From Promethearchaeota archaeon (lineage in GTDB: Archaea; Asgardarchaeota; Lokiarchaeia; Sigyniarchaeales; SOKP01), in assembly GCA_048937405.1 (NCBI GenBank), contig JBHLNF010000008.1, positions 96,001 through 160,000 of the forward strand: 64,000 nucleotides of DNA, read 5' to 3'. Positions 1,988 through 41,961 of the stretch are shown in pieces. Numbering within the stretch: the stretch's first letter is position 1; every line of letters begins with the position of its first letter. Below the pieces are notes generated by a model, which ran no database searches, was not told the origin of the DNA, and saw only the letters and a list, made by a program, of their open reading frames with translations. Both the position numbers and the translations under genes were made by a program.

Positions 1988-2587
1988 ATGGAAAAAGAAC
2001 CTTCGCTTATAGCTTTAGTTAATAGTCCTGCCAAAGATGCTCATAAAAGAAATGGTTCAGGATTTTCTTTAAAAGAAATTAAAGATGCTGGAAAGAATGT
2101 TCAATCATTAATGAAGTTGAATATTAAAATTGATTACTTTCGAAAATCTGCATATGCTACAAATATTGAGACCTTAAAATCATTAAAAATACCAACTGAA
2201 AAAAGCAAGAAAAAGAAACCTTTTGTTATGAAAGAAAAGAAGAAAACTCCATTTAAACCTAAAGTAAAAAAGCCAAAAACAGTAACTAAAAAACCAATTG
2301 AAAAAAAGTCAAAAATAACTACAGCTAAGTTCACTACTAAACCCAAAATGAAAGAAGAGAAAAAACCTCCTAAATTAGAAAAAATTTCATCTGGACCAGT
2401 GGGGACTCCATTAACAGAATTATCTGGATTAGGTGGTGCAACAGCAAAAAAATTTATCGAACTTGGAGTTAATAATGTAGAAGATTTGTGTAAAGAAAAT
2501 CCTGAAGAATTAGCAACTTTAATTAAGGGAGTTTCTTTGGATAGATTAAAAAAATGGATTGATGAAGGAAATAAGCTGATAAAATAA
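1988..2587 (+). CDS. Ribosomal protein eL13 (L13e)-like domain fused through a Lys-rich linker to a helix-hairpin-helix domain
   Basis: RNGSGFSLKEIKDAG...IDYFRKSAYATNIETLK resembles the L13e RxGRGFSLxELKxAG...VDxRR motif; LTELSGLGGATAKKFIELGVNNVEDL is HhH-like. Confidence 0.65.
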   Translation: MEKEPSLIALVNSPAKDAHKRNGSGFSLKEIKDAGKNVQSLMKLNIKIDYFRKSAYATNIETLKSLKIPTEKSKKKKPFVMKEKKKTPFKPKVKKPKTVTKKPIEKKSKITTAKFTTKPKMKEEKKPPKLEKISSGPVGTPLTELSGLGGATAKKFIELGVNNVEDLCKENPEELATLIKGVSLDRLKKWIDEGNKLIK

Positions 2588-2732
2588 CAATCTTATATTT
2601 TTATATTTACCTTTTTAGTGAATTTGAAATTACCCTAATGCTATTTTATTATTACTCAAATTTTTTAAACTATTAATATATTTTAAAAGTAATTTTATTT
2701 TCTTAAATAAAAAAATATAAGAGAGAAAGTAT

Positions 2733-3227
2733 ATGGAATATAATTATTTCGTATATAACAAACCAGAATGTAGAATAATAATTAATAGAATGCCAAAATG
2801 GTTTACAGAGATAGAATATAACGGAGATGAGAATCAAGGTACCATTATATTATACTCTCAAAATGAATATGATGAAATCTGGGGTCCAGAATCTAAAATG
2901 GAGATAAATTGGGAAAAAAAAGATAGAATGAACTTATTTTATTACAAAGAAGTCCAAAATTCTATAGATGTTTATAATGCGATTGGAATTGTTGTTACAG
3001 AAAAAAATAGAGATTGGTTAAGGAGCCATGAGATAACATTTTGGTATGGGCATCGAAATAAAATGATTAGAAAAAGATTTTACCATGAAAATGGAATACA
3101 TTGTGTTTTTTATTGTGATATAACTGAAAGATTATTCAATTTTCATACAGCAATAATTGGGGATCTTTATGAGAATTATAAACCATATATTATAAACTCT
3201 TATAATTCTATAGTTTGCCATGATTAA
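2733..3227 (+). CDS. Hypothetical protein
   Basis: 164-aa ORF with protein-like composition; no recognised motif. Confidence 0.6.
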   Translation: MEYNYFVYNKPECRIIINRMPKWFTEIEYNGDENQGTIILYSQNEYDEIWGPESKMEINWEKKDRMNLFYYKEVQNSIDVYNAIGIVVTEKNRDWLRSHEITFWYGHRNKMIRKRFYHENGIHCVFYCDITERLFNFHTAIIGDLYENYKPYIINSYNSIVCHD

Positions 3228-3967
3228 ACAGATTTACGAGCTAAAATAAAGAAGTTATCTTTTTCTGTAGGCCCTCCTGTTAGTTTGAATTCAATAATAT
3301 TAAAAACCTTCAATAATTTTTTAAGTTCACGCTTAGAAAAGAAATGATAAAACCTATTATATTTTTCTTGTTCTTTTGAAAGAGTCCAAGGAATATATTT
3401 ATCACCAAATTCCTCCAAACCAATTATATTCTGCTGTTTTTTATAATTAATACTAAAGTTTCTTCTAAACCATTCTAAGAAAAAATAATTTCTAAATCTT
3501 TTTTGCCACTTACGCCAAACAGTTAGGATTAGATTACCATTTTTTTTTAATGAAGCATATATTTGAAAAATTGTATTTTTTCTTATATTATTCCTTTTTA
3601 TATGATGTAAGGAAGCTATTGAAAAAACATTGTGAATGGAATTATCTCTGAAAGGAAGATTTGTAATATCTCCTAACAAAAGCTGGATAAAATTTGCTTC
3701 ATATTGGGAATATTGATCAGAATTTTTTAAAATAAATTTAGCTATTTTTAAAAATTCAAGAGAGATATCCAATCCAATTAATTTATTGGGAGGTGTAATC
3801 ATTAATTTAAAATTTCTACCATGAGCACATCCCAAATCTAAAGAGAGTCCCTTAAAAACATATCCCTTATTTTTTAAGTGTCCGAGAAAAAAAATTAGTG
3901 GACGCCATGGTTTTTTTCGTTTTAAATGGTAATCTTGTGCTATTTTATTAAAAGGTAATTTCTCCAT
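3224..3967 (-). CDS. Class I SAM-dependent methyltransferase (Trm9/ALKBH8-like)
   Basis: LDLGCAHGRN motif I, GLDIS, GDITNLPF, SIASLHH, IPW...RFYHFF. Confidence 0.85.
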   Translation of the reverse strand: MEKLPFNKIAQDYHLKRKKPWRPLIFFLGHLKNKGYVFKGLSLDLGCAHGRNFKLMITPPNKLIGLDISLEFLKIAKFILKNSDQYSQYEANFIQLLLGDITNLPFRDNSIHNVFSIASLHHIKRNNIRKNTIFQIYASLKKNGNLILTVWRKWQKRFRNYFFLEWFRRNFSINYKKQQNIIGLEEFGDKYIPWTLSKEQEKYNRFYHFFSKRELKKLLKVFNIIEFKLTGGPTEKDNFFILARKSV

Positions 3968-27806: not shown

Positions 27807-28370
27807 TTAAAATGAACCGCAACCTTTACACTTTCCATCTAAATATGCTGCACAATCATAACATATATTCCCACATTTTTCTTCTTGACTTTCTTGGCTG
27901 AATAAATTAATTGGTAAAAACTTAGGATTGATGAGATCCGATACAAATATTATTGCAGAGTGAAGTATTCCTTTTTTATTCGTAGGGCCGCAATAATTGA
28001 TATATCGATGTAAAACATCTACATTTTGCCCGATTATTCCTAATATCAAATTATATTGACCCGTAACTTGTGCCAGAAGAAAAACTCTTGGACATTCTGA
28101 ATAAGCTTCAATTATATTTTGTACTTCCTCATAGTTTTTCATTTCAATCAAGATAAAAAGAGCTTTAAATTTTAGCTTGTTAATATTTAAGTTAGCTTGA
28201 ACTTTGAGTACTTCAGATTCTTCTAATTTAGAAATTCGTTTAGCAATACCGGTATGACTCATAGTTTCATTACCAAATTTATAAATGACTTTTTCTAAAG
28301 TTGTTAGGCTTTGACGACCTTCTTTAAACAATTCAGCTATAATTTGTCTATCAACATTATCTATTAGCAT
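27807..28370 (-). CDS. Lrp/AsnC-family regulator with Cys-rich C-terminal tail (copy A)
   Basis: DNVDRQII...GRQS...IAKRISKLEE HTH; AsnC-type domain; CGNICYDCAAYLDGKCKGC. Confidence 0.88.
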   Translation of the reverse strand: MLIDNVDRQIIAELFKEGRQSLTTLEKVIYKFGNETMSHTGIAKRISKLEESEVLKVQANLNINKLKFKALFILIEMKNYEEVQNIIEAYSECPRVFLLAQVTGQYNLILGIIGQNVDVLHRYINYCGPTNKKGILHSAIIFVSDLINPKFLPINLFSQESQEEKCGNICYDCAAYLDGKCKGCGSF

Positions 28371-28775: not shown

Positions 28776-29339
28776 ATGCCTTTAGATCAAATTGATAAAC
28801 AGATTCTAAAATTGTTATTTGAAAATGGTCGAGAAAGCCTAAGCTCTTTGAGTATAAACGTTTTAAAATCAAACAAAGAATCAATGAGTCATGCAGGTAT
28901 TGCAAAACGAATTTCAAAATTGGAAGATGAACTTATACTTAAGATACAAGGTAATATTGGAATTAATAATTTAAACTATTTTGCTGCATTTATCTTGATT
29001 GAAATGAAAAATTATGAGGAACTACAAAATATAATTGAAGCATATTCAGAATGTCCAAGAGTTTTTCTGCTGGCTCAAGTTACGGGTCAATATAATTTGA
29101 TATTTGGAATTATCGGGCAAGATATGGATATTTTGCATCGATATATCAATTATTGCGGCCCTACGAATAAAAAAGGAATACTTCACTCTGCAATAATATT
29201 TGTATCGGATCTCATCAATCCTAAGTTTTTACCAATTAATTTATTCGGCCAAGAAAGTCAGGAAGAAAAATGTGGGAATATATGTTGTGATTGTGCAGCA
29301 TTTATCGATGGAAAGTGTAGAGGATGTGGTAACTTTTAA
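28776..29339 (+). CDS. Lrp/AsnC-family regulator with Cys-rich C-terminal tail (copy B)
   Basis: Paralogue of 27807..28370; CGNICCDCAAFIDGKCRGC. Confidence 0.88.
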   Translation: MPLDQIDKQILKLLFENGRESLSSLSINVLKSNKESMSHAGIAKRISKLEDELILKIQGNIGINNLNYFAAFILIEMKNYEELQNIIEAYSECPRVFLLAQVTGQYNLIFGIIGQDMDILHRYINYCGPTNKKGILHSAIIFVSDLINPKFLPINLFGQESQEEKCGNICCDCAAFIDGKCRGCGNF

Positions 29340-29663: not shown

Positions 29664-30335
29664 ATGAACAAGAAAATTTTACGATTGTTCATTATATTCT
29701 TCTTTGTTTTTGCAACTATAGGAACTGTTAGTGCTTGGCCTGGTTATATGTCAGAATGGGAAGAAACTGATCATGGATCTTGTCATGCGGGAACCTATAC
29801 TGAGTCTACAGGTACACTATCTGCAACAATTACTCCTGTAAATACCACAACTGTTACACTCGATCCTGGAACTACCTTTAATGTTACCCTTGATATTACA
29901 GGATTTACTGCGGCAGCAAATATGAGCGTTTTAGTTGGTATATCCGCTAGAATTAGTGATAATCACGATTTCTTTTTTGGTGTTCATAATGATAGTGGAG
30001 AGCTTGGAGCAACTGCCTTTGCGGTTGAATTAGACGCCTCTGGAAATGCTGATAACACAGTAACTATTATTGCATTCGCTCCCACTACTGGTGGTTCTCA
30101 TACATTAACAATTGTAGCTGTTGAAGGAGGAGAATCATACGCTACATCTCATGAATTTAATTACATTAAAACTGAAATAACAGTTACAGTTAAATCTACG
30201 GGTGGAGGGAGTATTCCAGGATATAGTATATTCTTCATTAGTTCTATTGGAGTTATGACTACTATTCCTATAGTGTTAATTACCCTTCGTAAAAGAAAAA
30301 ATCATAAGGAGTTGAATTCAATTGAAGAAGAATAA
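29664..30335 (+). CDS. Exported, C-terminally anchored beta-rich protein with a single-Cys HGSCH motif; candidate atypical c-type cytochrome
   Basis: Signal peptide ...TVSA|WP; DHGSCHAG contains the only Cys; IPGY-TM-RKRK Loki-CTERM-like anchor; upstream of ccmC. Confidence 0.7.
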   Translation: MNKKILRLFIIFFFVFATIGTVSAWPGYMSEWEETDHGSCHAGTYTESTGTLSATITPVNTTTVTLDPGTTFNVTLDITGFTAAANMSVLVGISARISDNHDFFFGVHNDSGELGATAFAVELDASGNADNTVTIIAFAPTTGGSHTLTIVAVEGGESYATSHEFNYIKTEITVTVKSTGGGSIPGYSIFFISSIGVMTTIPIVLITLRKRKNHKELNSIEEE

Positions 30336-30996
30336 AATGATTGTGTTAGCTGTAATTACTACCATGATATTTGGTGTTGTAGGTTATGTAGTTGCTCATC
30401 CCTCAGAAATTGTAGATTATACGGGAGCAGATCATGTTTCAACTGGATGTCATGGTACAAATGGTGTTGCTTCTAGCGGAACTCTTCAAGTATCAACCTC
30501 AACTTCTGGTAAGTTGATTACCCTTACTGTTACAATACAAGGATTTACAGATGCACTTCCGACTAGTAATAATAGATCTGGGACATTTTCTATTGGAATT
30601 CCTTATAATCTTGGAGATAATAGGGAATTTGGGCTAGGTATGACGCAAAATACTGTTAATGGCGAGGCTAATTATTGGGGAATCGGTATATGGGACGTTG
30701 AATTAGATTCAAATGGAAATACAGTTAATCCCTTGAGATTTAGAGTGCTAGCTCCTGAAACTGATGGAACATATGATTTAATTGTTGCTGTTATAAATGG
30801 AGTAAATTCAGAGGGAGATTACGAAAGTATTATTTATATGCACAAAATAATATCTGTTGCAGTAACAGGTGGAAGCATAACAATAGCTTCTCTAACTATG
30901 ATCTTTCCTCTAAATAATATATTTCTTTATGCAACTTTTGGATTATTTAGTACTGGGATGATAATTTTCGTGTTTAAGCGTAGAAAAATTAGATAA
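30322..30996 (+). CDS. Exported, C-terminally anchored paralogue with a single-Cys HVSTGCH motif; candidate atypical c-type cytochrome
   Basis: Signal ...VVA|HP; DHVSTGCHG contains the only Cys; shares DNxxF, VELDxxGN and APxTxG motifs with 29664..30335; C-terminal TM + KRRK. Confidence 0.7.
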   Translation: MKKNKMIVLAVITTMIFGVVGYVVAHPSEIVDYTGADHVSTGCHGTNGVASSGTLQVSTSTSGKLITLTVTIQGFTDALPTSNNRSGTFSIGIPYNLGDNREFGLGMTQNTVNGEANYWGIGIWDVELDSNGNTVNPLRFRVLAPETDGTYDLIVAVINGVNSEGDYESIIYMHKIISVAVTGGSITIASLTMIFPLNNIFLYATFGLFSTGMIIFVFKRRKIR

Positions 30997-31075
30997 AATT
31001 AATTAAGTCCAACTATAACAATCAATTTTTTTTTTATAAACCTTAAAATTTTAAATGAAAAAACAAATTTTTTAA

Positions 31076-31882
31076 ATGTCTGTTAAAAAATTGCAGGAAC
31101 GATCTAATTCGAATTTAAAGAGCATAATGATACGAAATAAAAAAGATCAATTGGATCTATTGAAAATCGTTAAAGATCATTTATTATTAACAATTTCACT
31201 TATGATATTAATTATTAATTTATTATTAATTTTAATTTTAACATCAAATAATCTAATTATTTGGAGTTCACCTAATCGAATTGTCTATATTATTTTTTTT
31301 TACCATGTATCCGGAGCATGGCTTTCATATTTCTCCTTTGGAATTAGTTTGATTTTTCATATTCTATTCATAAAGTCTCGTAAAAATATTTGGTTTTACT
31401 TTGGTAAAAATAGCATACTAGTTGGAGTATTTTTTTCTGGATTTACTCTTATAACAGGTTCGCTCTGGTTCAATGCTACATCGGGAGATTATAATAATAT
31501 TTTTTGGGTATGGGGTGATGCTCGACAGACTACAACATTAATATTATTCCTTTCCTATTTATCTTATTTGGTATTTGCTAAAATGATTGAAGATAGGGAA
31601 AAAAAGGCTAAATTAACAGCACTATTAGGTATTGTGCTATTTCCAACAGTTCCATTAAGTTACATTTCAACAATAGTTTTTACAAGTTTACATCCTTTAA
31701 TTAACCCAACTCCTGGTGAACCTGGAAATATTTACTGGGATCCTCTGAAATTATTTATGTTATTTTTCAATTTAATTGCAATGACCATATTATTTGTGTA
31801 TATTATAAAAGAACTAACTTATTTAGATAAAAAAAAAGAGGAATTGGATAAAATTAGACAAATTCGTTTATTGAGGGATTAA
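31076..31882 (+). CDS. ccmC: Cytochrome c biogenesis haem-handling membrane protein CcmC
   Basis: IFFYHV (His), ITGSLW...IFWVWGDARQTT (WWD domain), SLHP (His). Confidence 0.9.
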   Translation: MSVKKLQERSNSNLKSIMIRNKKDQLDLLKIVKDHLLLTISLMILIINLLLILILTSNNLIIWSSPNRIVYIIFFYHVSGAWLSYFSFGISLIFHILFIKSRKNIWFYFGKNSILVGVFFSGFTLITGSLWFNATSGDYNNIFWVWGDARQTTTLILFLSYLSYLVFAKMIEDREKKAKLTALLGIVLFPTVPLSYISTIVFTSLHPLINPTPGEPGNIYWDPLKLFMLFFNLIAMTILFVYIIKELTYLDKKKEELDKIRQIRLLRD

Positions 31883-31888
31883 TTAAAG

Positions 31889-32035
31889 ATGTCAATAGAG
31901 TATCTGGACCAAGATTTACTAACAATAATTATAAGTTATTTGTTATTCTGGGCTATTTTAATCATCCTAATTTTATATCCAAAACTAAAGTTAAAAAAAG
32001 TTTTAAAAAGTATTAAAAGTTTAGAAAACTCATAA
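31889..32035 (+). CDS. Small single-TM CcmD-like protein; not in the ORF track
   Basis: MSIEYLDQDLLTIIISYLLFWAILIILILYPKLKLKKVLKSIKSLENS*, 48 aa: a TM with SY..W then a basic tail, located between ccmC and ccmE. Confidence 0.72.
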   Translation: MSIEYLDQDLLTIIISYLLFWAILIILILYPKLKLKKVLKSIKSLENS

Positions 32036-32049
32036 AATAGGTGTGAAAT

Positions 32050-32388
32050 GTGAAAAAATCTAGAATCATAGCAATTATAGGAGTTGTTGTTTCGATTGGT
32101 GTTATAATTGCATTATTATCTATAAATACACGTCCTTACCTCAAAGTATCTCAAGTTGTATCACATTCCACTCGTTATGATAATAAAGAAATTCAAGTTA
32201 TTGGTATAGTTGAAGGGTATGTTTCCAGTGATTTTAATTTAACTGAGGGTGAACATAGTATCTTTATTGATCTTAGTAGCATTTCTCCACCTAGTACACT
32301 AAAAAATGGTATTGAAGTTGTTGTAATTGGAATGTTTAGTTCTAACTTAATTTTAGTAGCTGAACAGATTCTTACTCAATGTAGTTAG
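32050..32388 (+). CDS. ccmE: Haem chaperone CcmE, Cys-type, C-terminally shortened
   Basis: N-terminal TM, PYLKVSQV, IQVIGIV, GIEVVVIG, AEQILTQCS*; ccm gene context. Confidence 0.85.
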   Translation: MKKSRIIAIIGVVVSIGVIIALLSINTRPYLKVSQVVSHSTRYDNKEIQVIGIVEGYVSSDFNLTEGEHSIFIDLSSISPPSTLKNGIEVVVIGMFSSNLILVAEQILTQCS

Positions 32389-32393
32389 AAAAT

Positions 32394-33119
32394 TTAGTCA
32401 TATAAAAGTAAATGAGAAATTAAAGTTAAGATTGAGATCATAAGAATTATATGAGCAAACAAAAATCCTATTTCATAAATTAGATCATGTACTAATACTC
32501 CTTGTAATAATTTTATATTTAATGAAATTATTGGAGTTGTTATAGGGATAATTAAAGGGAATAGTATAATTGGTAAGATAAATGACTTGTTTTTAGCATA
32601 CATTGATAAAGCTGAAACCAGACTTCCACTTATAGATAAATCAAAAGTAGGCAAAATGATTCCTAAAATGATGTAGGTCAATACTTGAATAGAACTTATT
32701 CTACCTATTAATGGTGCAGATAAAAAGAAACTAAAAAGATATAGAATAATCTCTATTAAAGTCATTAAAATTAAACAATATATAGTTTTACTGAAAAGAA
32801 TTATATTTGGAAAGATTGGAGATGAAATTAGACCATTTATCGTACCCGATTCCTTTTCTTTGATGAATAATTTTGCCATAATATAGATAAGAGTAAAAAA
32901 AATAATTAACCAAATTTGAATTACAAAAATCTCTAAAGGCATATTTTGATATTGAGTTCCAAAATTATAAACTGATGAGAATATGAATATTGAGATAATA
33001 TCAAAAAGAATTACAGCAAATAAATCATTCAATTGCCGAACTTCAGATTTAATATCTTTTATTAGTATTGTTTTAAATTGTTTTAATTTTAATTTTAATG
33101 ATATATCTTCTGTTTTCAA
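32394..33119 (-). CDS. ccmB: Haem exporter membrane subunit CcmB
   Basis: KDIKSEVR, FIKEKESGT, ILPIILFPLIIP; about six TM segments. Confidence 0.9.
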   Translation of the reverse strand: MKTEDISLKLKLKQFKTILIKDIKSEVRQLNDLFAVILFDIISIFIFSSVYNFGTQYQNMPLEIFVIQIWLIIFFTLIYIMAKLFIKEKESGTINGLISSPIFPNIILFSKTIYCLILMTLIEIILYLFSFFLSAPLIGRISSIQVLTYIILGIILPTFDLSISGSLVSALSMYAKNKSFILPIILFPLIIPITTPIISLNIKLLQGVLVHDLIYEIGFLFAHIILMISILTLISHLLLYD

Positions 33120-33131
33120 AAAAACACCCTT

Positions 33132-33839
33132 TTAAAATAATGATTCAATTTCATCAAATTCTTCATCTGTAATCCTTCTTTCGATTTTACCTTTTTTTAG
33201 AATAATCAAATCATTACATAATTGTTGAAATAAGTCTGTTTTATGGGTCGTAAGAATTATTGTAACATTATTTTTTTGATTCATTTCTCTGATAAATTTA
33301 ATTAGCCTATCTGTTGCTACATAATCTAAACCAGAAAAGGGTTCATCTAAAAATAATATTGAGGGACTATGGATGATAGATCTTATCAATTCTACCTTTT
33401 GTTTCATTCCATGGGATAGAGTTCTTACAGGTTCATTAATCCAATCTGTAAGATCAAATCTTTCGACTAATTTGTTAATTTTCCGCTTAATATTTCCTTT
33501 TTCAAAAATTAAATGTAAGTTACAATAGAATTTTAAATTCTCATAAACAGTTAATTCATCATATAGAAAAGATTCATCAGTAGTTATTCCAATATTCTGA
33601 TATATAATTCTTGAATGATCTTTATAATTCATTCCCCCTATTTCAACATTTCCAAAAGTAGGTTTAATCAATCCTGACAATATTTTAATAAGGGTTGTCT
33701 TACCCGCTCCATTCGCTCCAGCTATCCCAAATATTCTACAATTTTTAATATTAAAAGAATTATTTTTGAGGGCAAAAAAATATCCATATTGTTTTGAAAT
33801 GTTATTACAAATTATTAAATTATTATCGGATTCAACCAT
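33132..33839 (-). CDS. ccmA: ABC ATPase CcmA
   Basis: GANGAGKTT, LSHGMKQK, LFLDEPFSGLD; directly upstream of ccmB. Confidence 0.85.
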   Translation of the reverse strand: MVESDNNLIICNNISKQYGYFFALKNNSFNIKNCRIFGIAGANGAGKTTLIKILSGLIKPTFGNVEIGGMNYKDHSRIIYQNIGITTDESFLYDELTVYENLKFYCNLHLIFEKGNIKRKINKLVERFDLTDWINEPVRTLSHGMKQKVELIRSIIHSPSILFLDEPFSGLDYVATDRLIKFIREMNQKNNVTIILTTHKTDLFQQLCNDLIILKKGKIERRITDEEFDEIESLF

Positions 33840-34025
33840 AATCTGAATAATATATATTATGAAAATTAAAAATTACAATAATTTGAAGGAATTAAAAGAA
33901 AAAAATAATTGCTATTTAATTTATCTTATCGAATTTAATTTTCTTTTTATTAATTTAAATAGGATGGAAATTTCATTAGTTGTTATAATCTATAAACCAT
34001 CTAAATAAAATTTATGAATTTAAAC

Positions 34026-35717
34026 TCAATTTTTGTTGAAAAAGGTCGTTAATATTGAAGGAATTATCCCACTCAATAGAAAAATAAAGCCTGTGATAAA
34101 AAAAATATCTTGAAAAATCCAAAAATTCTTACTTATTAAAAATCCTATTAATATAAATGAGATTCCAGTATGAATTATTGTTTTAGAATTTACCTTGAAA
34201 AAATGTTTGATTCCTTTCTTAAACTTTAAATTTGTTATAATAGACCAAAAAGATACTATTACTGCTATATAAAATATTGCTATAGCTGGATTAATCCAAA
34301 TATCAAGAAAAATTAATCCTATGACTGAGAATATTGATTGAATAATAAAGACTATAATTATCAAAGATATTATTAATTTTATCTCAATTTTTTCATAAAT
34401 AATACAAAAGATTAATGATAAAGACAAACAAATAGCTAATATTAATGTAGTTAATATAAAATAATCTGTTCCTATATATATTATGTTTATGGGAAAAAAT
34501 TCTGATAGCAATATTGTTAAAGGTGTAACAAAAAGCCCGAATATGCATACAAAAGATAAGCTAAATAAAAATATGTAACTTAAGTAATTAAAGAGAAGCT
34601 TTATTGTTCTATAATCCTGTAATATATAATCAAGAATAATATATATTACGTAGAGAGAAAATATTATTAAAATTAATCCAATTATAGTCAACCAGATAAT
34701 TAATTCAGTTTCTCCAACATAAGAATGAAGTGGAGATATTCCTGCTCTTGTAATTAGTGTAGAAAAAATAATAGCAACAAAGATTAATCCTAGATTTATT
34801 TTCACTAGATTTGGATTTTTCTTTTGAAAAGTCATAGTATGAAAGTAAGCAGTAATGAAAAACCATGGAATGAGAGATACTGTTTCAACCTGATCCCAAC
34901 CCCAATATCTACCCCAGTTCAGTGCAATCTTAGCCCAATATGCACCCAATCCAATACCTAAAGTAAGAATTAACCAACCAAACTTTAAAGTAAATTTATA
35001 AAAATTTTGTTGAAATGATCCTAAAAGAGTTGTATTTTTTGTTAAAGTTTCTGCAATCACAATTGTAAATGGAATTAGAAAAATCGCATATGCAATAAAT
35101 GTAAAAAACGGATGCCAAATCATAAATGGAGATATTAAAAGTGGATTTAAGCCTAATCCATCAGAAGGAGACGATGATTGGAGTTCAAAAGGATTTAGAT
35201 AAAATAATATTATAAAAAAAATGGATGAAACTATTGATGATATTGTTACAGATCGAATGAAGACAATATCTTTTTTGTTTTTATTTCCCATTCTAAATAG
35301 AGTGATCATTATTGCATTAAATAACATCCATGTCATGATGGATCCTTCTTCACCGGCCCAAATAGCAACAATTTTATAAATTATAGGAAGTGAATTATTG
35401 CTAAAACTCCACACATATATAATTTTGTAGATGTTATTTAGAAAACTGTAAACCATAATTAAAAATAGAATCACCGATAAACTCATAGATAAAATTGATA
35501 AAAAATAAGTATTTTGTTTTTTAACAATTAATAGAATAAGATCCAGAATCATGATTATAATTAGAAAAATGATTAAAAAGTTGCCTAGAAAGGATATAAA
35601 AATAATTCTATAACTTAATTCTATTAAATCTAATACTAAAGGAATTATTAATATAAAGATAAGAATTAAGCTGAAATTAATAATAACCATCTTTTTTATC
35701 GACATATTAGTAGACAT
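34026..35717 (-). CDS. ccmF: Holocytochrome c synthase CcmF
   Basis: WAGEEGS, GLGLNPLL, WHP, LGAYWA, WGRYWGWDQVET, YFHT, LITRAG, LHSY, IIHTG. Confidence 0.93.
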   Translation of the reverse strand: MSTNMSIKKMVIINFSLILIFILIIPLVLDLIELSYRIIFISFLGNFLIIFLIIIMILDLILLIVKKQNTYFLSILSMSLSVILFLIMVYSFLNNIYKIIYVWSFSNNSLPIIYKIVAIWAGEEGSIMTWMLFNAIMITLFRMGNKNKKDIVFIRSVTISSIVSSIFFIILFYLNPFELQSSSPSDGLGLNPLLISPFMIWHPFFTFIAYAIFLIPFTIVIAETLTKNTTLLGSFQQNFYKFTLKFGWLILTLGIGLGAYWAKIALNWGRYWGWDQVETVSLIPWFFITAYFHTMTFQKKNPNLVKINLGLIFVAIIFSTLITRAGISPLHSYVGETELIIWLTIIGLILIIFSLYVIYIILDYILQDYRTIKLLFNYLSYIFLFSLSFVCIFGLFVTPLTILLSEFFPINIIYIGTDYFILTTLILAICLSLSLIFCIIYEKIEIKLIISLIIIVFIIQSIFSVIGLIFLDIWINPAIAIFYIAVIVSFWSIITNLKFKKGIKHFFKVNSKTIIHTGISFILIGFLISKNFWIFQDIFFITGFIFLLSGIIPSILTTFFNKN

Positions 35718-35909
35718 TAAAAAAACACCTAGAATGTATTATTTAAGAATTTTAATAAAGATTTTTAAAATTAAAACATAATTGCATAATTTAGGTGCAA
35801 TTTTTGCTATAATTCTTTAAAAAAATCTTTATTTTTAAAATATATAAACAAGATATAAAAAACAATGCTCATAGATTAATAATACTTTAGCTTGAGTAAA
35901 TGATAAATC

Positions 35910-36782
35910 ATGAAAAAGAAAATTTTTTACTTTTTTACTAGTATTATAGTGTTGATGACTTTCTCACTTTTTATCTTCGGAAGCGCGAGGCCTCCATTTG
36001 GAGATACTCATTCTGAGAGTGGATGTCATGGATCATCGGGGGGTTATACAATTTCGTATACTACTCCTGTAAGAAGTCTTATAAATAATACTCCTTATTT
36101 TATTTTTAACATTTCTGCTAGTGGACCTGATTTATTTGTACAAGCTTATCCTGGTGCGAAAGATAATGACAATTTTGGTATTATGCCTTCAAATAATAAA
36201 ATAGTAGACGATTCGGAAAATGATTTAAATCCAAATCACGATGCAATGAATATCATTTTCAATGTGACACCAACTGTAGAGCAAAAATCTTATACATTGT
36301 TCATAATTGCAGGTAATAATATAACTGGGGGTCGACAATTCGCTTATGTTGAAATTATAATTGGAATTCCACCTGGATTTGATTTATCTTCTGTGATGCT
36401 CGATCATTTAGGTTTATATTTAGGATTACCAGCCTTGTTATTAGTTTCGATTGCAACTATCCTAGTTTTGGTAAATGAAAATAAATTTGTAAAAGTTCAT
36501 GGAATACTCGCTGGTGGTGCATGGATTTTAACAATCATTAATGTTATTGTTGCTGTAATAAAAATACCTAGAGGAGCTTGGCTTGGGGGTTATAATTTAA
36601 TTTATCATCTTCCTCATATAATTCTTGGCTCGATTGGTTTGGTTACTGGTTTTTTAAGTATGTTATTTGGAATTGCGGCAGAGAGAAGACCAGCAAAAAT
36701 CACAGGATATATTACTTTACTCTGTTGGTGGGGTGCTTTCTTTTTAGGTTATTTTCTAAACTCTAATTTACTTTTAATTTGA
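35910..36782 (+). CDS. Exported single-Cys HSESGCH domain fused to a 4-TM His-containing cytochrome b-like domain
   Basis: Signal ...GSA|RP; THSESGCHG; DNDNF; four TM helices with LDHLG, KVHG and YHLPHIILG. Confidence 0.7.
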   Translation: MKKKIFYFFTSIIVLMTFSLFIFGSARPPFGDTHSESGCHGSSGGYTISYTTPVRSLINNTPYFIFNISASGPDLFVQAYPGAKDNDNFGIMPSNNKIVDDSENDLNPNHDAMNIIFNVTPTVEQKSYTLFIIAGNNITGGRQFAYVEIIIGIPPGFDLSSVMLDHLGLYLGLPALLLVSIATILVLVNENKFVKVHGILAGGAWILTIINVIVAVIKIPRGAWLGGYNLIYHLPHIILGSIGLVTGFLSMLFGIAAERRPAKITGYITLLCWWGAFFLGYFLNSNLLLI

Positions 36783-36804: not shown

Positions 36805-38298
36805 ATGGGTCAATCTAAAAATAATTCGAAAAATAATTATAGGAAAAGTGAAGAAAAGGATCTTGAAAATCAATTTTTAGAATTTATATCTCCTTATCAT
36901 GTAAGCACAAATCCTTTTGAACTTGAATCTGCTTCAGCAGATCTTACTTCTCTACCTGCCTACCATTATAAATTCAAAAAGAAATATTTAGCTAGTTATG
37001 TTATCCGTCCAGCCAACATTAATGAACTATCATTAGCTATAAAAAAGTGTAGAGATCTCCATATTCCCGTAACAATTCGAGCTGCTGGAACATCATGTTT
37101 TTCTTCAGCAACACCTTCAATGGGAGGTGTAATTATAGATATACGTAGATTAAACAAAGTCCATGAAATAAATCAAGAAAAAATGACGGTAAAAGTAGGA
37201 AGTGGAATATCTTGGCTAAATTTAATAGAAGCATTATCTGATTATGGACTTGAACCAAAAACTTTCCCAACTAGTTTTAAAACTTCATGTGTAGGAGGCT
37301 TTATTGCAACTCCAGGTAAAGCTGGTATTGGTGTATTGAAATATGGAACAATGGAATCCACAATTATTTCTGTAGATCTAGTTAAGCCAGATGGCACTGT
37401 AATCAAAATTTCGAGAGATTCTAATCAAGAAATAAGTATTAGTGATTTTGTAGGTACATATGGTATCTTTGGAGCAATAGCAAATGTTGAATTATCTATT
37501 ACTACCCTAAAAACTTCATTAGAGATAATAGGTTATGGATTTAACTCAATTGAGCAAGCAATAAATTTTTATTTATTAATAAAAGAGGATTTACCCAATA
37601 AACCATTATTTCTTTCAATTTCAGAAAGAAATTTTGAAAAATATTCACATGTTGCTTTTCCAAAAGAGGAATGGATCGTTTGGGCGGTATATTATGATGA
37701 ACCTGAACTAACTTCAAAAAGTATATCAGATGTTAAACACCAAGCATCCAAGTTAAATTGTGTAGAAATTGAGAGTTCTTATTTAAAAGAAAAGTGGCGT
37801 GATATTAGTGATGCTGAAGTATCGATAGGATCTTCGACAAGGAACCTCATTTTCCAAGAATATTGGATCTCTGATAAGAGATTAAAAAAGTTTATAGGAA
37901 TATATGTTAAAAAAGTTAAGAGTTATAAATTTCCTACAGCTTCATACGCAATTTCCGGAGAAAAAGGTTGGACAAGAGTGAAAATTTTTGGTTTAACAGA
38001 TATCGATAGAACTATAGAATTTTTCGCAGTTAAAGCTTTCTTACATGATTTAACTATTCAAGCCTTCAGTCAAGAAGATAGACTATATACTATTGGCATT
38101 GTCAATACATTTTACTTATTAAAGTATAAAGCAGAAGAAGTAAAGAAATGGAAGATTCTTAAGGAAAAATTAGATCCTAAACACTTATTCAATTCATATA
38201 GATTAACTAATGCGAGAATGAAATTTTGGAGAGTATCATTACTTTTTAACATGGCAAAGCTATTGTATAAGATATTTAAAATAAAACGCTCTAAATAA
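36805..38298 (+). CDS. FAD-binding oxidoreductase (GlcD/D-lactate dehydrogenase-like)
   Basis: VIRP, IRAAGTS, SCVGGFIAT, FVGTYGIFG, KEKLDPKHLFN. Confidence 0.85.
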   Translation: MGQSKNNSKNNYRKSEEKDLENQFLEFISPYHVSTNPFELESASADLTSLPAYHYKFKKKYLASYVIRPANINELSLAIKKCRDLHIPVTIRAAGTSCFSSATPSMGGVIIDIRRLNKVHEINQEKMTVKVGSGISWLNLIEALSDYGLEPKTFPTSFKTSCVGGFIATPGKAGIGVLKYGTMESTIISVDLVKPDGTVIKISRDSNQEISISDFVGTYGIFGAIANVELSITTLKTSLEIIGYGFNSIEQAINFYLLIKEDLPNKPLFLSISERNFEKYSHVAFPKEEWIVWAVYYDEPELTSKSISDVKHQASKLNCVEIESSYLKEKWRDISDAEVSIGSSTRNLIFQEYWISDKRLKKFIGIYVKKVKSYKFPTASYAISGEKGWTRVKIFGLTDIDRTIEFFAVKAFLHDLTIQAFSQEDRLYTIGIVNTFYLLKYKAEEVKKWKILKEKLDPKHLFNSYRLTNARMKFWRVSLLFNMAKLLYKIFKIKRSK

Positions 38299-38401: not shown

Positions 38402-39745
38402 ATGAGTGAAGGAAAAGAAAAAGTTGATTTAAAAAATATAGTAACTTCTGGTCCACCTGTAGCAGGTTTAGTTTCTCCATCAAGAGACAATTTAGTCGAA
38501 CCTTCAGATAAGTATAAAGATGAAAAATCTTTTGAACGATGTACTCATTGTGGTTATTGCCGTCATGTTTGTAAAGTTTATAATACCTCTTGGTGTGAAA
38601 CTGACTATGCTGGAGGTCGGAATAGAATTATCAAAGCATTGGATCGAAAGGATATTAAATTCGATAAGGAGCAAATAATACCTTCGGTTTTTCGTTGTAT
38701 GTTATGTGGTAATTGTAAAGTTGTGTGTCCAGTTCAAGTAGATACGCTAAGTGTTTTCCAGAATTTTAGGAAAAAAGTAGTAAAAAAAGGAGCAATGCCT
38801 GAAAAATTAAAAATCCTTAAAAGTTCGATTATAGAAAATAATAATCCATTTCTAGAAAAACATGGTGATAGATTTAATTGGATAAATGCTTGTGAAGAGG
38901 GAGCTGAAGCTTATGAAAGGAGTTCTCAGAGACTGGAGACCTTAGTAGAAGAGAAAGGAGATTATTCTGTAGGGTATTTTGTCGGGTGTACATCGTCATA
39001 TCGAAATAAAGAACTTGTATCGGCTACTAGTCGTGTTTTAAAGAAATTAGGCATTGAGTTCACACTTTTTCCAGAGGAAAGATGTTGTGGTTCTGTGTTG
39101 TTTCGAACTGGATTAGAAGATGAAGCTATTGAACTTATAAAGCATAATTATGAAATAATTCGTAAGAGTGGAGTAAAAGAAGTTGTTTTTTCATGTTCGG
39201 GTTGTTTTTCAACGTTTTCACTTGAATATTCCAAATTTGCTAATTATAATCTTGGATTTGATTTGTATCATATTACTCAATATGCTTTAAAAATTGTAAA
39301 GGAAAAAAATCTTAAAATTAGATATACAAAACGCACAAAGGATGATCCTTTACTCATAACTTATCATGATCCATGTCATTTAGGCAGATATTGCAACGTT
39401 TTTGAAGAACCTAGAGAACTCATTCGAAGAATTGAAGGAGTTAAATTATTTGAAATGAAACACAATAGAGAAATGTCTTGGTGTTGCGGTGCAGGAGGTG
39501 GTGTGAAAGCTCTATATGGGGATATGGCACTTGAAGTTGGAAGGGACAGAATTTCGGAAACACGTGCTTGTATGGTTCGAATGCGAGAAGACCGTTTAAA
39601 AGAAGCAATTGAGACATCAGCAGAAGTTCTTGTAAGTTCCTGTGTCTTCTGTAAGAATAATTTATTTCAAGTCGCTACTGAAGATAATTCTCCAATAAAA
39701 GTTATGGATATTTCACAACTTTTAGCTGATTGTGAGTATTATTAA
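38402..39745 (+). CDS. Fe-S oxidoreductase (GlcF/HdrD-like: two 4Fe-4S motifs plus two CCG domains)
   Basis: CTHCGYCRHVC, CMLCGNCKVVCP, YFVGC, ERCCG, TYHDPCHLGR, CCGAGGG. Confidence 0.9.
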   Translation: MSEGKEKVDLKNIVTSGPPVAGLVSPSRDNLVEPSDKYKDEKSFERCTHCGYCRHVCKVYNTSWCETDYAGGRNRIIKALDRKDIKFDKEQIIPSVFRCMLCGNCKVVCPVQVDTLSVFQNFRKKVVKKGAMPEKLKILKSSIIENNNPFLEKHGDRFNWINACEEGAEAYERSSQRLETLVEEKGDYSVGYFVGCTSSYRNKELVSATSRVLKKLGIEFTLFPEERCCGSVLFRTGLEDEAIELIKHNYEIIRKSGVKEVVFSCSGCFSTFSLEYSKFANYNLGFDLYHITQYALKIVKEKNLKIRYTKRTKDDPLLITYHDPCHLGRYCNVFEEPRELIRRIEGVKLFEMKHNREMSWCCGAGGGVKALYGDMALEVGRDRISETRACMVRMREDRLKEAIETSAEVLVSSCVFCKNNLFQVATEDNSPIKVMDISQLLADCEYY

Positions 39746-39822: not shown

Positions 39823-41961
39823 TTAATTTTTTAGAGAATCTGGAAAATCATCAGCATTTTCTAAATTATTCCAATTTAGGGATATTTCTTCTAAAGAAGG
39901 TATACTACTCAGATTTTTTGGTAATTTCGTAAGGTGGTTATCATTTAGCTTTAATTTTTTAAGAGATTTTAAATTTATAAAAGAATTAGGTAATTTTTTT
40001 AATTTATTTCCAATTAACCAAATCTCTTTAAGAAAACTTAATAATCCTATCGATTCTGGTAGGAATTCAATATTGTTATCAATTAAATACAGCCTTTCCA
40101 GTGAATTAAGTGAACCAATTGAATCAGGAAGAATTTTAATCTGATTGTCTGTTAATTTTAGCACCTTTAATAGATTAAGTTTACCAAAATCTTCTGGTAA
40201 AACAACAAGTTTATTATATGATAAATCTAAAAATTCTAAAGATTTAATCAAACAAATTGAACTTGATAATTTATGTAAATTGTTATTATTTAAATAGAAA
40301 TATTTAAGAGATTTTAAGGTTCCCAGAGAATCTGGAATACTTTCTAATTTATTCCAACCTAATTTTAAAACTTCAAGAGAATTTAGTATCATTATTGATT
40401 CAGGGAGGAAGGAGAGATTATTATCTTCTAGGTTAAGAAATCTAAGTGATGACATTGAATTCAATGAGTCTGGAAGTTTTTCTAAATTATTACTACTTAA
40501 ATTAAGGTATTCGAGTGAATAGAGTAACCCAATAGAGCCAGGTAAATTTACTAATTTATTTTGAATTAGATTTAGAGTTTGAAGAGATTTTAGCTTCCCT
40601 ATAGAAGATGGGATTTCTAATAGTCTATTTCCACTAACATTCAAAAATTTTAATGACGATAGATTTCCGATTGATTTTGGAAGATAAGTTAGACAGTTCA
40701 TTTCTAAATTTAAATGAAGTAACGATGAAAGCTTACCTATTGAATCTGGGAGTTTCTCTATTTTGTTTTTACTTAAATTTAATAATTTTAAAGATGTAAG
40801 TGATAAAATTGATTTATTAATATCTTTAAGATTATTTCCTTCTAGATCTAAAGCTTTTAAGTTTTTTAAGGAAGCTATTGATTTGTTAATTTTATAGAGA
40901 TTGCATTTTTTTAATAGAAGTGATCTTAGTGAACGAAAATACTTTATATAACATGGAAATTTAACAAGAGGTACTTTTTCAATATGAATTGAAATAAGTT
41001 CCCCCATTGATACTTTATAATTTATGATTGGATATTTTTTTATTAAATATGAGATAGTTAAATAATTTCTAAATATATCTGATAATTTCGAGAGTGATAA
41101 ATCTTCAAAAGTTCTTGAAAGGTGTTTAAATGATAATTTAAATTTTTTATCATCAATACTCCTTATTTGATCTATTAATACCTCTCTCGCTGCTTCATTG
41201 TTTAATCTTTCTAATGCTATTGTCAGTGCGATTGAGTTTTTAAAATTGAACTCATCTTTAATTGACCATTCAGTTGAGAAGAATTTAATTTTTTTTAGTC
41301 GTTCTAGATTTTCAATACCAAGAATTTCAGAATGATCCTGAAAAGCATCTCTATCTCGCCAATAAATAGCTTGGTTATCAACTTCAGAAAAATCTAAATA
41401 AGTTATAAATCCCTTTTTTTCTAAAAATTTAAGTCTATGAAACTTCTTTTTTAGATTTTTAATGGTGAGTTGATTTATGAGTATATTTCCTAATTCATTA
41501 CTTGAAAATGACGTAGAATTATTATTATTAAAGAAAAAATGCTTCTTATCCTCGAAAATTTCAGAACTTATTCTATTCAGTTCATCGATTAATGCTTTTA
41601 TGATTTCATCATCATTATAATCTTTTAAAGCTTTAACTATTGTTATTAAACAGTTATAAGAATATTCATGCTTTAGAGCCCAGAGAAATGGAGATATCGC
41701 TTTCTTTGGATATTTATCTTTTAAAACATTTGCTGCAAAATATCTCAAATCATCATTTATTTCAGATATAAGTATATATTCTAAAATTTTGAAAACATTT
41801 TTATGTTTTAAATCAATTTTATTTAAGATTTTAATACAATCTTTTTTAATGATATCATCATTTATGTTTTCGATGAAATCTAGCAATAATCTAACTGTTT
41901 CACATTCATTAAATGCTTGACTTCTAAAATTTTCATAAATTCTACTTGGTGTTAACTCCAT
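39823..41961 (-). CDS. Leucine-rich-repeat protein with N-terminal HEAT-like region
   Basis: Many tandem 23-aa LPxSIGxLxSLxxLxLxxNxL repeats in the C-terminal half. Confidence 0.92.
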   Translation of the reverse strand: MELTPSRIYENFRSQAFNECETVRLLLDFIENINDDIIKKDCIKILNKIDLKHKNVFKILEYILISEINDDLRYFAANVLKDKYPKKAISPFLWALKHEYSYNCLITIVKALKDYNDDEIIKALIDELNRISSEIFEDKKHFFFNNNNSTSFSSNELGNILINQLTIKNLKKKFHRLKFLEKKGFITYLDFSEVDNQAIYWRDRDAFQDHSEILGIENLERLKKIKFFSTEWSIKDEFNFKNSIALTIALERLNNEAAREVLIDQIRSIDDKKFKLSFKHLSRTFEDLSLSKLSDIFRNYLTISYLIKKYPIINYKVSMGELISIHIEKVPLVKFPCYIKYFRSLRSLLLKKCNLYKINKSIASLKNLKALDLEGNNLKDINKSILSLTSLKLLNLSKNKIEKLPDSIGKLSSLLHLNLEMNCLTYLPKSIGNLSSLKFLNVSGNRLLEIPSSIGKLKSLQTLNLIQNKLVNLPGSIGLLYSLEYLNLSSNNLEKLPDSLNSMSSLRFLNLEDNNLSFLPESIMILNSLEVLKLGWNKLESIPDSLGTLKSLKYFYLNNNNLHKLSSSICLIKSLEFLDLSYNKLVVLPEDFGKLNLLKVLKLTDNQIKILPDSIGSLNSLERLYLIDNNIEFLPESIGLLSFLKEIWLIGNKLKKLPNSFINLKSLKKLKLNDNHLTKLPKNLSSIPSLEEISLNWNNLENADDFPDSLKN

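Follow-up and report, generated by a model that had tools for sequence, protein, structure and literature searches.

Putative single-thioether c-type cytochromes of Lokiarchaeia linked to a variant System I haem-attachment island

To what does a cytochrome c maturation (Ccm, or System I) cluster attach haem in a genome where exported proteins with the usual CxxCH haem motif seem to be missing? System I is held to require both Cys of CxxCH. The question is raised by a 64,000-nucleotide stretch of DNA from a Promethearchaeota archaeon of the Lokiarchaeia (GenBank assembly GCA_048937405.1, contig JBHLNF010000008.1, positions 96,001 to 160,000; G000:C26:96001-160000 in our genome set, G+C about 27-30%), referred to below as the window. 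The genome amounts to 4.47 Mb in 29 contigs, with a completeness of 100% and a contamination of 5.7%. A preliminary description, drawn from the letters of the window, had placed the ccm genes between homologous exported proteins; every open reading frame (ORF) that it named is present at its coordinates, and the Ccm genes are indeed flanked on both sides by three such proteins, here called A, B and C:

29664-30335, plus strand: protein A, in which a signal peptide precedes the motif H37-G-S-C40-H41 (nt 29772-29786) and a beta-sandwich, and the tail is PGF/Loki-CTERM-like; one Cys
30322-30996, plus strand: protein B, in which a signal peptide precedes the motif H38-VSTG-C43-H44 (nt 30433-30453) and a beta-sandwich, with a membrane anchor at the C-terminus; one Cys
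35910-36782, plus strand: protein C, in which a signal peptide precedes the motif H34-SESG-C39-H40 (nt 36009-36029) and a beta-sandwich; joined to the sandwich is a membrane bundle of four helices that has conserved His

From comparative sequence analysis we consider it probable that A, B and C form a family of cell-surface, beta-sandwich, monohaem c-type cytochromes with a single thioether, matured by a variant of System I; the covalent binding of haem through their single Cys seems fairly likely on the same grounds. The predicted haem site, (C/H)-x(1-4)-C-H, would lie about 10-17 residues past the signal peptide, and since a His takes the position of the first Cys in all three proteins, one thioether only would form, to the single Cys. 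A, B and C would be the only plausible substrates of the adjoining streamlined System I (CcmA, B, C, D-like, E and F). We regard them as Ccm substrates because of their linkage to ccm, the positional homology of their site to CxxCH, the intact Ccm residues and the lack of an alternative substrate.

The three proteins are paralogues with 28-33% identity, in which C40, H41, D99, N100, F103, P140, L148 and Y167 (A numbering) are invariant. The motifs singled out in the preliminary description (DHGSCHAG in A, DHVSTGCHG in B, THSESGCHG in C) are all present, and alignment confirmed the shared DNxxF and P-x-x-x-x-(S/T)(H/Y)xL features, the latter a strand, to which an invariant Tyr can be added. The motif Cys had also been described as the only one in the exported domain, and this stands: A and B hold one Cys per precursor, and the second Cys of C lies only in its last membrane helix. 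No two-Cys motif of the CxxCH (or CxnCH/CxxCK) type occurs in A, B or C. Export was judged from hydropathy heuristics, and all three proteins combine a basic N-terminus, a hydrophobic stretch and a small-residue cleavage-like site with a C-terminal anchor or Loki-CTERM-like tail. The tail of A consists of IPGY, a hydrophobic helix and RKRK, and the pattern IPG[FY]-helix-RKRK is conserved in homologues; it matches Loki-CTERM NF033507 with E 0.012 and 15.9 bits, under the cut-off of 19.9. An archaeosortase-like match, also below cut-off, lies on the same contig as the island (G000:C26:79479-79856). Pfam and NCBIfam have no family for A, B or C, and a profile search of PDB sequences with the family gave nothing below E 0.5. 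Close homologues come without exception from Asgard/Promethearchaeota metagenome bins, and B orthologues read HTGCH (L001), HADCH (L002) and HSGCH (L006).

The absence of exported CxxCH proteins from the window, noted earlier, was confirmed and extends to the whole genome. Genome-wide, 54 ORFs contain CxxCH and 232 contain Cx2-4C[HK], and all of these with any hydrophobic segment were read individually; no credible exported cytochrome came to light, the set being made up of Fe-S proteins, zinc ribbons, HNH-type proteins, a CheC-like protein and spurious short ORFs. The exported CxxCH candidates that we rejected are a zinc-ribbon membrane protein (C7:237-1376), a CheC-like protein (C16:40069), an MvhD-like protein (C28:61235) and C7:575641. 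A signal-like N-terminus is found in 456 ORFs of the genome: a credible Cx2-4CH follows it in none of them (0/456), and H-x(2-4)-C-H follows it in A, B and C only. No canonical substrate that could account for the ccm genes was thus found elsewhere by the whole-genome scan, nor did this genome yield any family member besides A, B and C.

The family and the ccm genes keep company across genomes. A family profile was run over 160 genomes of the class and 399 of the phylum, and at a threshold of E<=1e-8 it matched 29 class genomes, all in one Lokiarchaeia family (two genera), and 3 genomes of another Asgard family. That the linkage might not hold in homologues had been named as a risk to the proposal; 29/29 class genomes with the family carry ccm genes in the same cluster, and ccm without the family was found in no class genome among the 160 searched. 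CcmF is present in 28/29 family-positive genomes and in no other class genome. These co-occurrence counts come from related genomes, which as kin are not independent, and we attach no statistical claim to them. In the apparent exception, G110, ccmC, ccmE, ccmB and ccmA run to a contig end, and its protein C lies at the end of another contig. We count 131 class genomes with neither the family (E<=1e-8) nor ccm, a number to be read alongside G121, which was found through CcmE and has weaker family matches on the same contigs. Weak matches in 18 further genomes (E about 1e-4) involve the C-terminal sorting tail only. Gene order is kept in the related loci L001-L011 (regulators, A/B-type genes, ccmCDE, ccmBA, ccmF, C, FAD oxidase, CCG protein), and family and ccm genes share a single cluster wherever the contigs are long enough to show it. 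The distant Asgard family (L018, L019, L024) presents the same linkage. Relatives additionally encode giant members of 958-1513 aa between ccmA and ccmF (L004:4911-9452, minus strand; L005:9887-14428, plus strand; L006:7976-10852, plus strand), of which the window has none. Giant members consist of an N-terminal HxxCH domain, Ig-like repeats (Big_7) and a C-terminal anchor, and in those of 958, 1513 and 1513 aa the motif Cys is the sole Cys of the entire protein, which favours a role in holding a cofactor over one in a disulfide.

How the site itself varies was seen from an exhaustive profile search, which gave 105 clusters at 50% identity; 3 of these match only via internal Ig-like repeats and were excluded, leaving 102. 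Conservation of the Cys-His pair, another point on which the preliminary description had staked its proposal, proved high, the pair being kept in 99/102 clusters. It is also invariant in 21 aligned homologues (25-88% identity) and in another alignment of 19. The upstream position is His in 72/102 clusters and Cys in 21/102, so that His or Cys is found in 93/102. The clusters are distributed as follows:

Hx2CH: 41 clusters
Hx3CH: 19 clusters
Hx4CH: 9 clusters
Hx5-6CH: 3 clusters
CxCH: 12 clusters
CxxCH: 7 clusters
Cx4CH: 2 clusters
CH with neither His nor Cys upstream: 6 clusters
No CH: 3 clusters

In L015 and L020 the C orthologue, placed between ccmF and the same FAD oxidase, reads CNSCH in column-for-column alignment with HSESGCH/HSGCH. 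In the other Asgard family, a contig that also bears ccmABCE has a C-like CSTCH protein ahead of the same pair of FAD and CCG genes, and further members read CLSCH, CGGCH and similar. A FastTree phylogeny of 131 members places the Cys/His interchange at least 4 times on well-supported branches (9 by parsimony), with the Cys-His pair fixed. By position, the upstream His is the homologue of the first Cys in CxxCH, and the syntenic CNSCH orthologue and these other members bear out the proposal that His replaces that Cys. The idea of a single-Cys family holds for A, B and C of this genome and fails for the family as a whole, as about a fifth of the clusters have two Cys. The CxCH form was seen in P0098, P0099, P0100, P0113, P0114, P0118, P0123, P0124, P0130 and P0135-P0137 and in loci L025 and L027; several of its members are fused to LanC-like or glycosyl-hydrolase-like domains.

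Between B and C lie the genes of the attachment machine:

31076-31882, plus strand: ccmC, a haem-handling WWD protein (PF01578, E 7e-15)
31889-32035, plus strand: a ccmD-like small membrane protein of 48 aa (PF04995, E 1.4e-4; TIGR03141, E 1.6e-3; both under curated cut-offs)
32050-32388, plus strand: a ccmE variant ending ...LTQCS-stop (PF03100, E 1e-7)
32394-33119, minus strand: ccmB, an ABC permease (PF03379, E 6e-11)
33132-33839, minus strand: ccmA, an ABC ATPase (PF00005, ABC_tran, E 5e-30)
34026-35717, minus strand: ccmF, a haem lyase of 563 aa (PF01578, E 8e-24)

Judged by its residues, this Ccm machine looks functional yet modified. Alignment with the E. coli proteins shows that CcmC keeps H60, H184 and the WWD motif, and that in CcmF H173, H261, H303 and H491 (P-His1, TM-His1, P-His2, TM-His2) and the WWD block W236-W253 are invariant; the C-terminal periplasmic domain of E. 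coli CcmF is missing. In CcmE, a Cys aligns with the haem-binding H130 of E. coli and the protein stops one residue later, with nothing at Y134. Set against the His/Cys-then-xxxY feature, the attachment residue is therefore present and the Tyr absent. The QCS-stop tail is no assembly accident, because it is identical in 9 related loci. The ccmD-like ORF recurs between ccmC and ccmE in L001-L004, L006, L010 and L011. Among the ORFs of the cluster we found no CcmH/CcmI and no CcmG; a CcdA-like gene lies elsewhere in the genome, and the relative G104 has ccdA and a thioredoxin-like gene within its cluster. Archaeal systems generally do without CcmH/I (PMC9084895). The same study, on Methanosarcina, states that CXXXY is universal in archaeal CcmE and that archaea lack CcmD (PMC9084895). 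Our cluster departs from both statements, having a CcmE without CXXXY and a CcmD-like ORF, the latter recognised by a sub-threshold match. The CcmABCEF system of Methanosarcina acetivorans (PMC9084895) resembles the present one in having no CcmH/I, a Cys (not His) in CcmE, and the WWD and His ligands of CcmC and CcmF; the present system differs in the C-S-stop end of CcmE, the CcmD-like ORF, a ccmF that is a single gene, and the lack of a CxxCH substrate.

A truncated CcmE, the loss of the first Cys and the absence of haem synthesis (see below) are also what a decaying relic would present, that is, a ccm cluster left behind after haem synthesis was lost, together with former cytochromes whose first Cys has mutated away and which have no present function. 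We find this scarcely credible. About 30 genomes, with proteins 50-90% identical, have all the genes intact; neither Cys-His nor the catalytic residues of Ccm vary, and the QCS-stop tail of CcmE is itself conserved. The replacement of the first Cys is His in 72/102 clusters and not a set of random residues, and the family has gained paralogues and giant forms.

The form of CcmE goes with the type of motif. CcmE ends in QCS-stop in 10 clusters (the window and nine loci), which have His-type members only. A CcmE with CPSKY and a longer tail is found in L018, L024 and L026, all from the other Asgard family, with a G+C of about 0.43. L018 and L024 hold Cys-type members together with multihaem cytochromes of 9 and 6 motifs; L026 holds a cytochrome of 7 motifs, and the Cys-type member of that genome is on another contig (L025). 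This pattern supports a co-variation of CcmE with motif class that would amount to two or three independent contrasts only, and within that limit it lends support to the earlier suggestion of a Ccm system adapted to one-Cys substrates. System I would here be adapted in that its CcmE retains the haem-binding Cys and has no Tyr ligand. Another form was seen in a closed 3.3 Mb genome, where locus L009 (G066:C1:3289000-3308000) contains two tandem full-length ccmF genes and a CcmE tail reading ...YCCDRSTGV; the member of the protein C type in this genome reads ATLGCH, without His or Cys upstream.

What the upstream His might do can be framed from these observations. It may position the haem edge, aid recognition or bond the other vinyl group; a role as iron ligand is geometrically doubtful. 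Covalent His-vinyl haem links occur in CcmE, at His130, and in the cyanobacterial haemoglobin GlbN, and we know of none in any mature cytochrome c. In CcmE and GlbN the His is placed where addition to a haem vinyl is possible; in A, B and C the Cys/His interchange raises this as a possibility only. We think it unlikely that the upstream His adds to the second haem vinyl, like CcmE His130, so that a modified System I would make a mixed His-vinyl and Cys-thioether linkage. Such a linkage would explain the toggling between Cys and His (93/102), the CxnCH-like variation in spacing and the loss of the CcmE Tyr in exactly these lineages, and, if true, it would be a new chemistry of covalent haem attachment in a mature cytochrome.

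Where would the haem come from? HemB, HemC and any tetrapyrrole methylase (Dph5-type included) were not found in this genome, so that haem must come from outside if A, B and C are cytochromes; these Lokiarchaeia appear, from their gene content, to be general tetrapyrrole auxotrophs. G104, one of the two HemB-positive genomes of the class, is also ccm-positive. It has a complete Ahb-type operon (hemB, hemL, two radical-SAM/SPASM genes, ahbA, an ahbB-sirC fusion, hemA, hemC and a SUMT-hemD fusion) on the same contig as its island, some 5 kb away from the twin regulators at the boundary of the latter (L012:9914-19583, corresponding to G104:C2:45913-55582). On the metagenomic contig L020, ahbB-sirC, hemA, hemC and SUMT-hemD lie directly beside ccmB, ccmA, ccmF and C. 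Haem synthesis is thus physically tied to the island in two lineages, which supports a haem function. The distribution suggests that most relatives lost haem synthesis and kept attachment. The Ahb (sirohaem-dependent) operon of G104 adjoins a sulfite-reductase-like gene, and the G104 island also holds two EB_dh proteins.

An organism without haem synthesis could also use such proteins as haem-scavenging receptors, surface sandwiches that bind exogenous haem non-covalently (through Cys, His or Tyr) in a NEAT-type or haemophore-like manner and pass it to Ccm or to importers. A, B and C are surface-anchored Ig-like sandwiches with an invariant Tyr (Y167) as well as the Cys-His, and C is fused to a membrane bundle, all of which would suit such a role. 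As receptors they would leave the Ccm system without any substrate in the genome. The canonical CxxCH of their orthologues is a signature of covalent attachment, the module of C, FAD oxidase and CCG protein indicates redox chemistry, and relatives that make haem (G104, L020) retain the same cluster. On this balance we judge scavenging distinctly improbable.

Predicted structures were of limited help. The AlphaFold2 (AF2) model of A has a predicted local distance difference test (pLDDT) score of 73 and shows a seven- to nine-strand beta-sandwich (residues 45-176) followed by a C-terminal helix; the motif falls in a low-confidence N-terminal arm. The model of C (pLDDT 77.5) combines an A-type sandwich with helices at 172-188, 195-218, 230-252 and 260-283. 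Foldseek and VIA searches with the A model returned only generic Ig/macroglobulin-like sandwiches (best Z 8.9). As in cytochrome f, the predicted haem motif of A and its paralogues would lie close to the start of the mature protein, ahead of a beta-sandwich and a membrane anchor at the C-terminus; the match in fold is no more than generic, sequence similarity is absent, and the family as a whole does not conserve the residue that follows the predicted signal cleavage. A likeness to cytochrome f that would include an N-terminal amino ligand was dropped, as 2jxm_B came 50th in rank with Z 6.1 and the residues that open the mature protein vary across the family. The helical part of C matches cytochrome b561 and Dcytb (4o6y_A, 5zlg_A) with Z 12.0 over 149 residues, and a designed bundle with Z 12.2, hence the match is non-specific. 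Like them, the membrane part of C is a helical bundle with conserved His; b561 and Dcytb have six helices, four His and two haems b, whereas C has four helices and three largely conserved His positions. This domain has no Pfam match. The ESM Atlas gave weak leads only, to Reeler-like and Big_7 surface proteins (scores <=0.87), and nothing for the membrane domain of C. The modelled fold appears uninformative as to the cofactor, because the matches are generic for the sandwich and no better than designed bundles for the helices.

Surface proteins of the EB_dh/DOMON type (CbsA-like, haem b) with Loki-CTERM-like tails were seen in the islands of relatives (L001:7204-8394; L011:67-858 and 2486-3733; L019:193-1170), the one in L019 with CDLCH near its N-terminus; EB_dh is absent from this genome. 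The Reeler-DOMON-cytochrome b561 layout is a eukaryotic architecture, which the Reeler-like leads, the EB_dh/DOMON neighbours and the b561-like bundle recall as a weak lead.

In a further reading, without haem, (H/C)-x-x-C-H would bind Cu, Fe or Zn, or the lone Cys would be a redox-active or sulfane-carrying thiol, and the linkage to ccm would reflect only the shared regulation of an extracytoplasmic redox island. As metal ligands, His and Cys can replace each other, CxCH and variable spacing are commoner in metal sites than in haem c, and SoxYZ (Z 6.3) and the AmoB cupredoxin domain (Z 6.5) were among the many generic fold matches. No metal-binding family was matched in Pfam, NCBIfam or PDB sequences, and such a site leaves unexplained the perfect co-occurrence with ccm, the missing alternative Ccm substrate, the co-variation with the CcmE tail and the adjacency to haem-synthesis operons. 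A non-haem site is, in our estimate, very unlikely.

If A, B and C are cytochromes, what do they serve? They belong to a compact island that spans 27.8-39.7 kb of the window, in the order two divergent Lrp/AsnC-like regulators, A, B, ccmC, the ccmD-like ORF, ccmE, ccmB/ccmA/ccmF (minus strand), C, FAD-binding oxidase and CCG/Fe-S protein. Its remaining members are:

27807-28370, minus strand: Lrp/AsnC-like regulator 1, 187 aa (weak Pfam HTH_AsnC/AsnC_trans_reg matches), which marks the boundary of the conserved cluster
28776-29339, plus strand: Lrp/AsnC-like regulator 2, 187 aa (Pfam; NCBIfam LysM/Lrp-like, E 5e-10, below cut-off; synteny kept)
36805-38298, plus strand: FAD-binding oxidase, GlcD-like (PF01565, E 7e-32)
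38402-39745, plus strand: Fe-S/CCG protein, GlcF/HdrD-like (PF02754, E 7e-32, and Fer4_8; synteny), partner of the FAD oxidase

The FAD oxidase lies directly 3' of C in every locus, including that of the other Asgard family (L024), and a [NiFe]-hydrogenase/Hdr-like operon is a conserved neighbour of the island. We propose that CcmABC(D) loads scavenged haem, taken from the surroundings or from partners, onto the Cys of CcmE, and that CcmF would then hand this haem on to the lone Cys in each of A, B and C, where the adjacent His would become the proximal ligand. Between the cytoplasmic FAD/Fe-S dehydrogenase (GlcD/GlcF-like, 2-hydroxyacid-type) and the four membrane helices of C there would be an exchange of electrons, and these could pass through the outer haem domain of C to the surface-anchored A and B, and in relatives also to the giant 958-1513 aa members. 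Such an extracytoplasmic electron path is the likely physiological role, for which we infer the direction and the partners. In L024 (G350:C148:21000-40000), from the other Asgard family, the pair of FAD oxidase and CCG protein occurs three times, beside family members, ccmABCE and a six-haem cytochrome.

The two regulators are divergently transcribed twins, each with a C-terminal Cys-rich tail (CGNIC.DCAA..DGKC.GCG), and form the boundary of the cluster in nearly all relatives (64-76% identity); orthologues of regulator 1 with 64-76% identity are found at the equivalent position in L001, L002, L003, L004 (cut short by the end of the locus), L005, L006, L007 and L010. They may be a redox- or metal-sensing pair that controls the island. 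Their assignment as AhbA/B was rejected, because these 187-aa AsnC-like proteins show no AsnC_trans_reg2 or NirDL-HTH matches, which the true AhbA/B of G104 do have. Next to the island on its downstream side, at 39823-41961 (minus strand), lies a leucine-rich-repeat protein of 712 aa; in L002 and L003 a leucine-rich-repeat protein of 757 aa is found within the island, between the regulators and protein A.

One-thioether cytochromes c are already known from Euglenozoa, whose mitochondrial cytochromes c and c1 carry A/FxxCH and are matured by a divergent, non-Ccm route (PMC8262978). Of the motif, they retain, like A, B and C, the second Cys and the His only; they have the class I helical fold with the first Cys changed to Ala or Phe, whereas A, B and C have a beta-sandwich, His in that position, a spacing of x2-x6 and System I. 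The engineered XXXCH variants of cytochrome c-b562 and c552 in E. coli (PMC3268396) likewise offered an XXXCH-type site to System I; here the single-Cys proteins seem to be natural substrates and the only ones, beside an altered CcmE. Reviews of archaeal cytochromes c cover two-Cys motifs only (PMC4429474), and a survey of Promethearchaeota sought cytochrome c by homology to the class I domain IPR009056 (bioRxiv 10.1101/2025.02.26.640444). Screens by CxxCH or by the class I domain would miss the A/B/C family. In full-text literature we found nothing on HxxCH haem sites, on Ccm in Lokiarchaeia or on this family. What would be new is the putative cytochrome family, the motif variant and the CcmE variant.

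Several points weigh against cytochromes of this kind. HemB occurs in only 2/160 class genomes, this genome being among the 158 without it, and the uptake of haem would be needed, yet no importer gene was identified. The motif lies in a disordered stretch of the AF2 models (pLDDT<50), and in the generic Ig/MG-like sandwich a haem pocket is not visible. A distal ligand was not found either, as the proteins have an invariant Tyr and no conserved Met or second His besides the motif His. The CxCH form of 12 clusters is, to our knowledge, not a known spacing of haem c. The System I of E. coli handles single-Cys cytochromes very poorly, and these become trapped as adducts of CcmE, haem and cytochrome (PMC3268396). 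The presence of haem on A, B and C is argued from comparative genomics, and the electron-transfer role from gene neighbourhood only.

If the cytochrome reading is true, these archaea would possess a Ccm lineage with one-Cys substrates only and a CcmE without its Tyr, which would provide a handle on thioether formation and on the release of haem from CcmE. A surface family encoded beside a membrane-spanning module and a dehydrogenase is a candidate for extracellular or interspecies electron transfer in Lokiarchaeia, syntrophic archaea that are kin of the eukaryotic ancestor. The retention of a haem-attachment machine in about 30 haem-auxotrophic genomes would, in turn, imply an exchange of haem with their partners.

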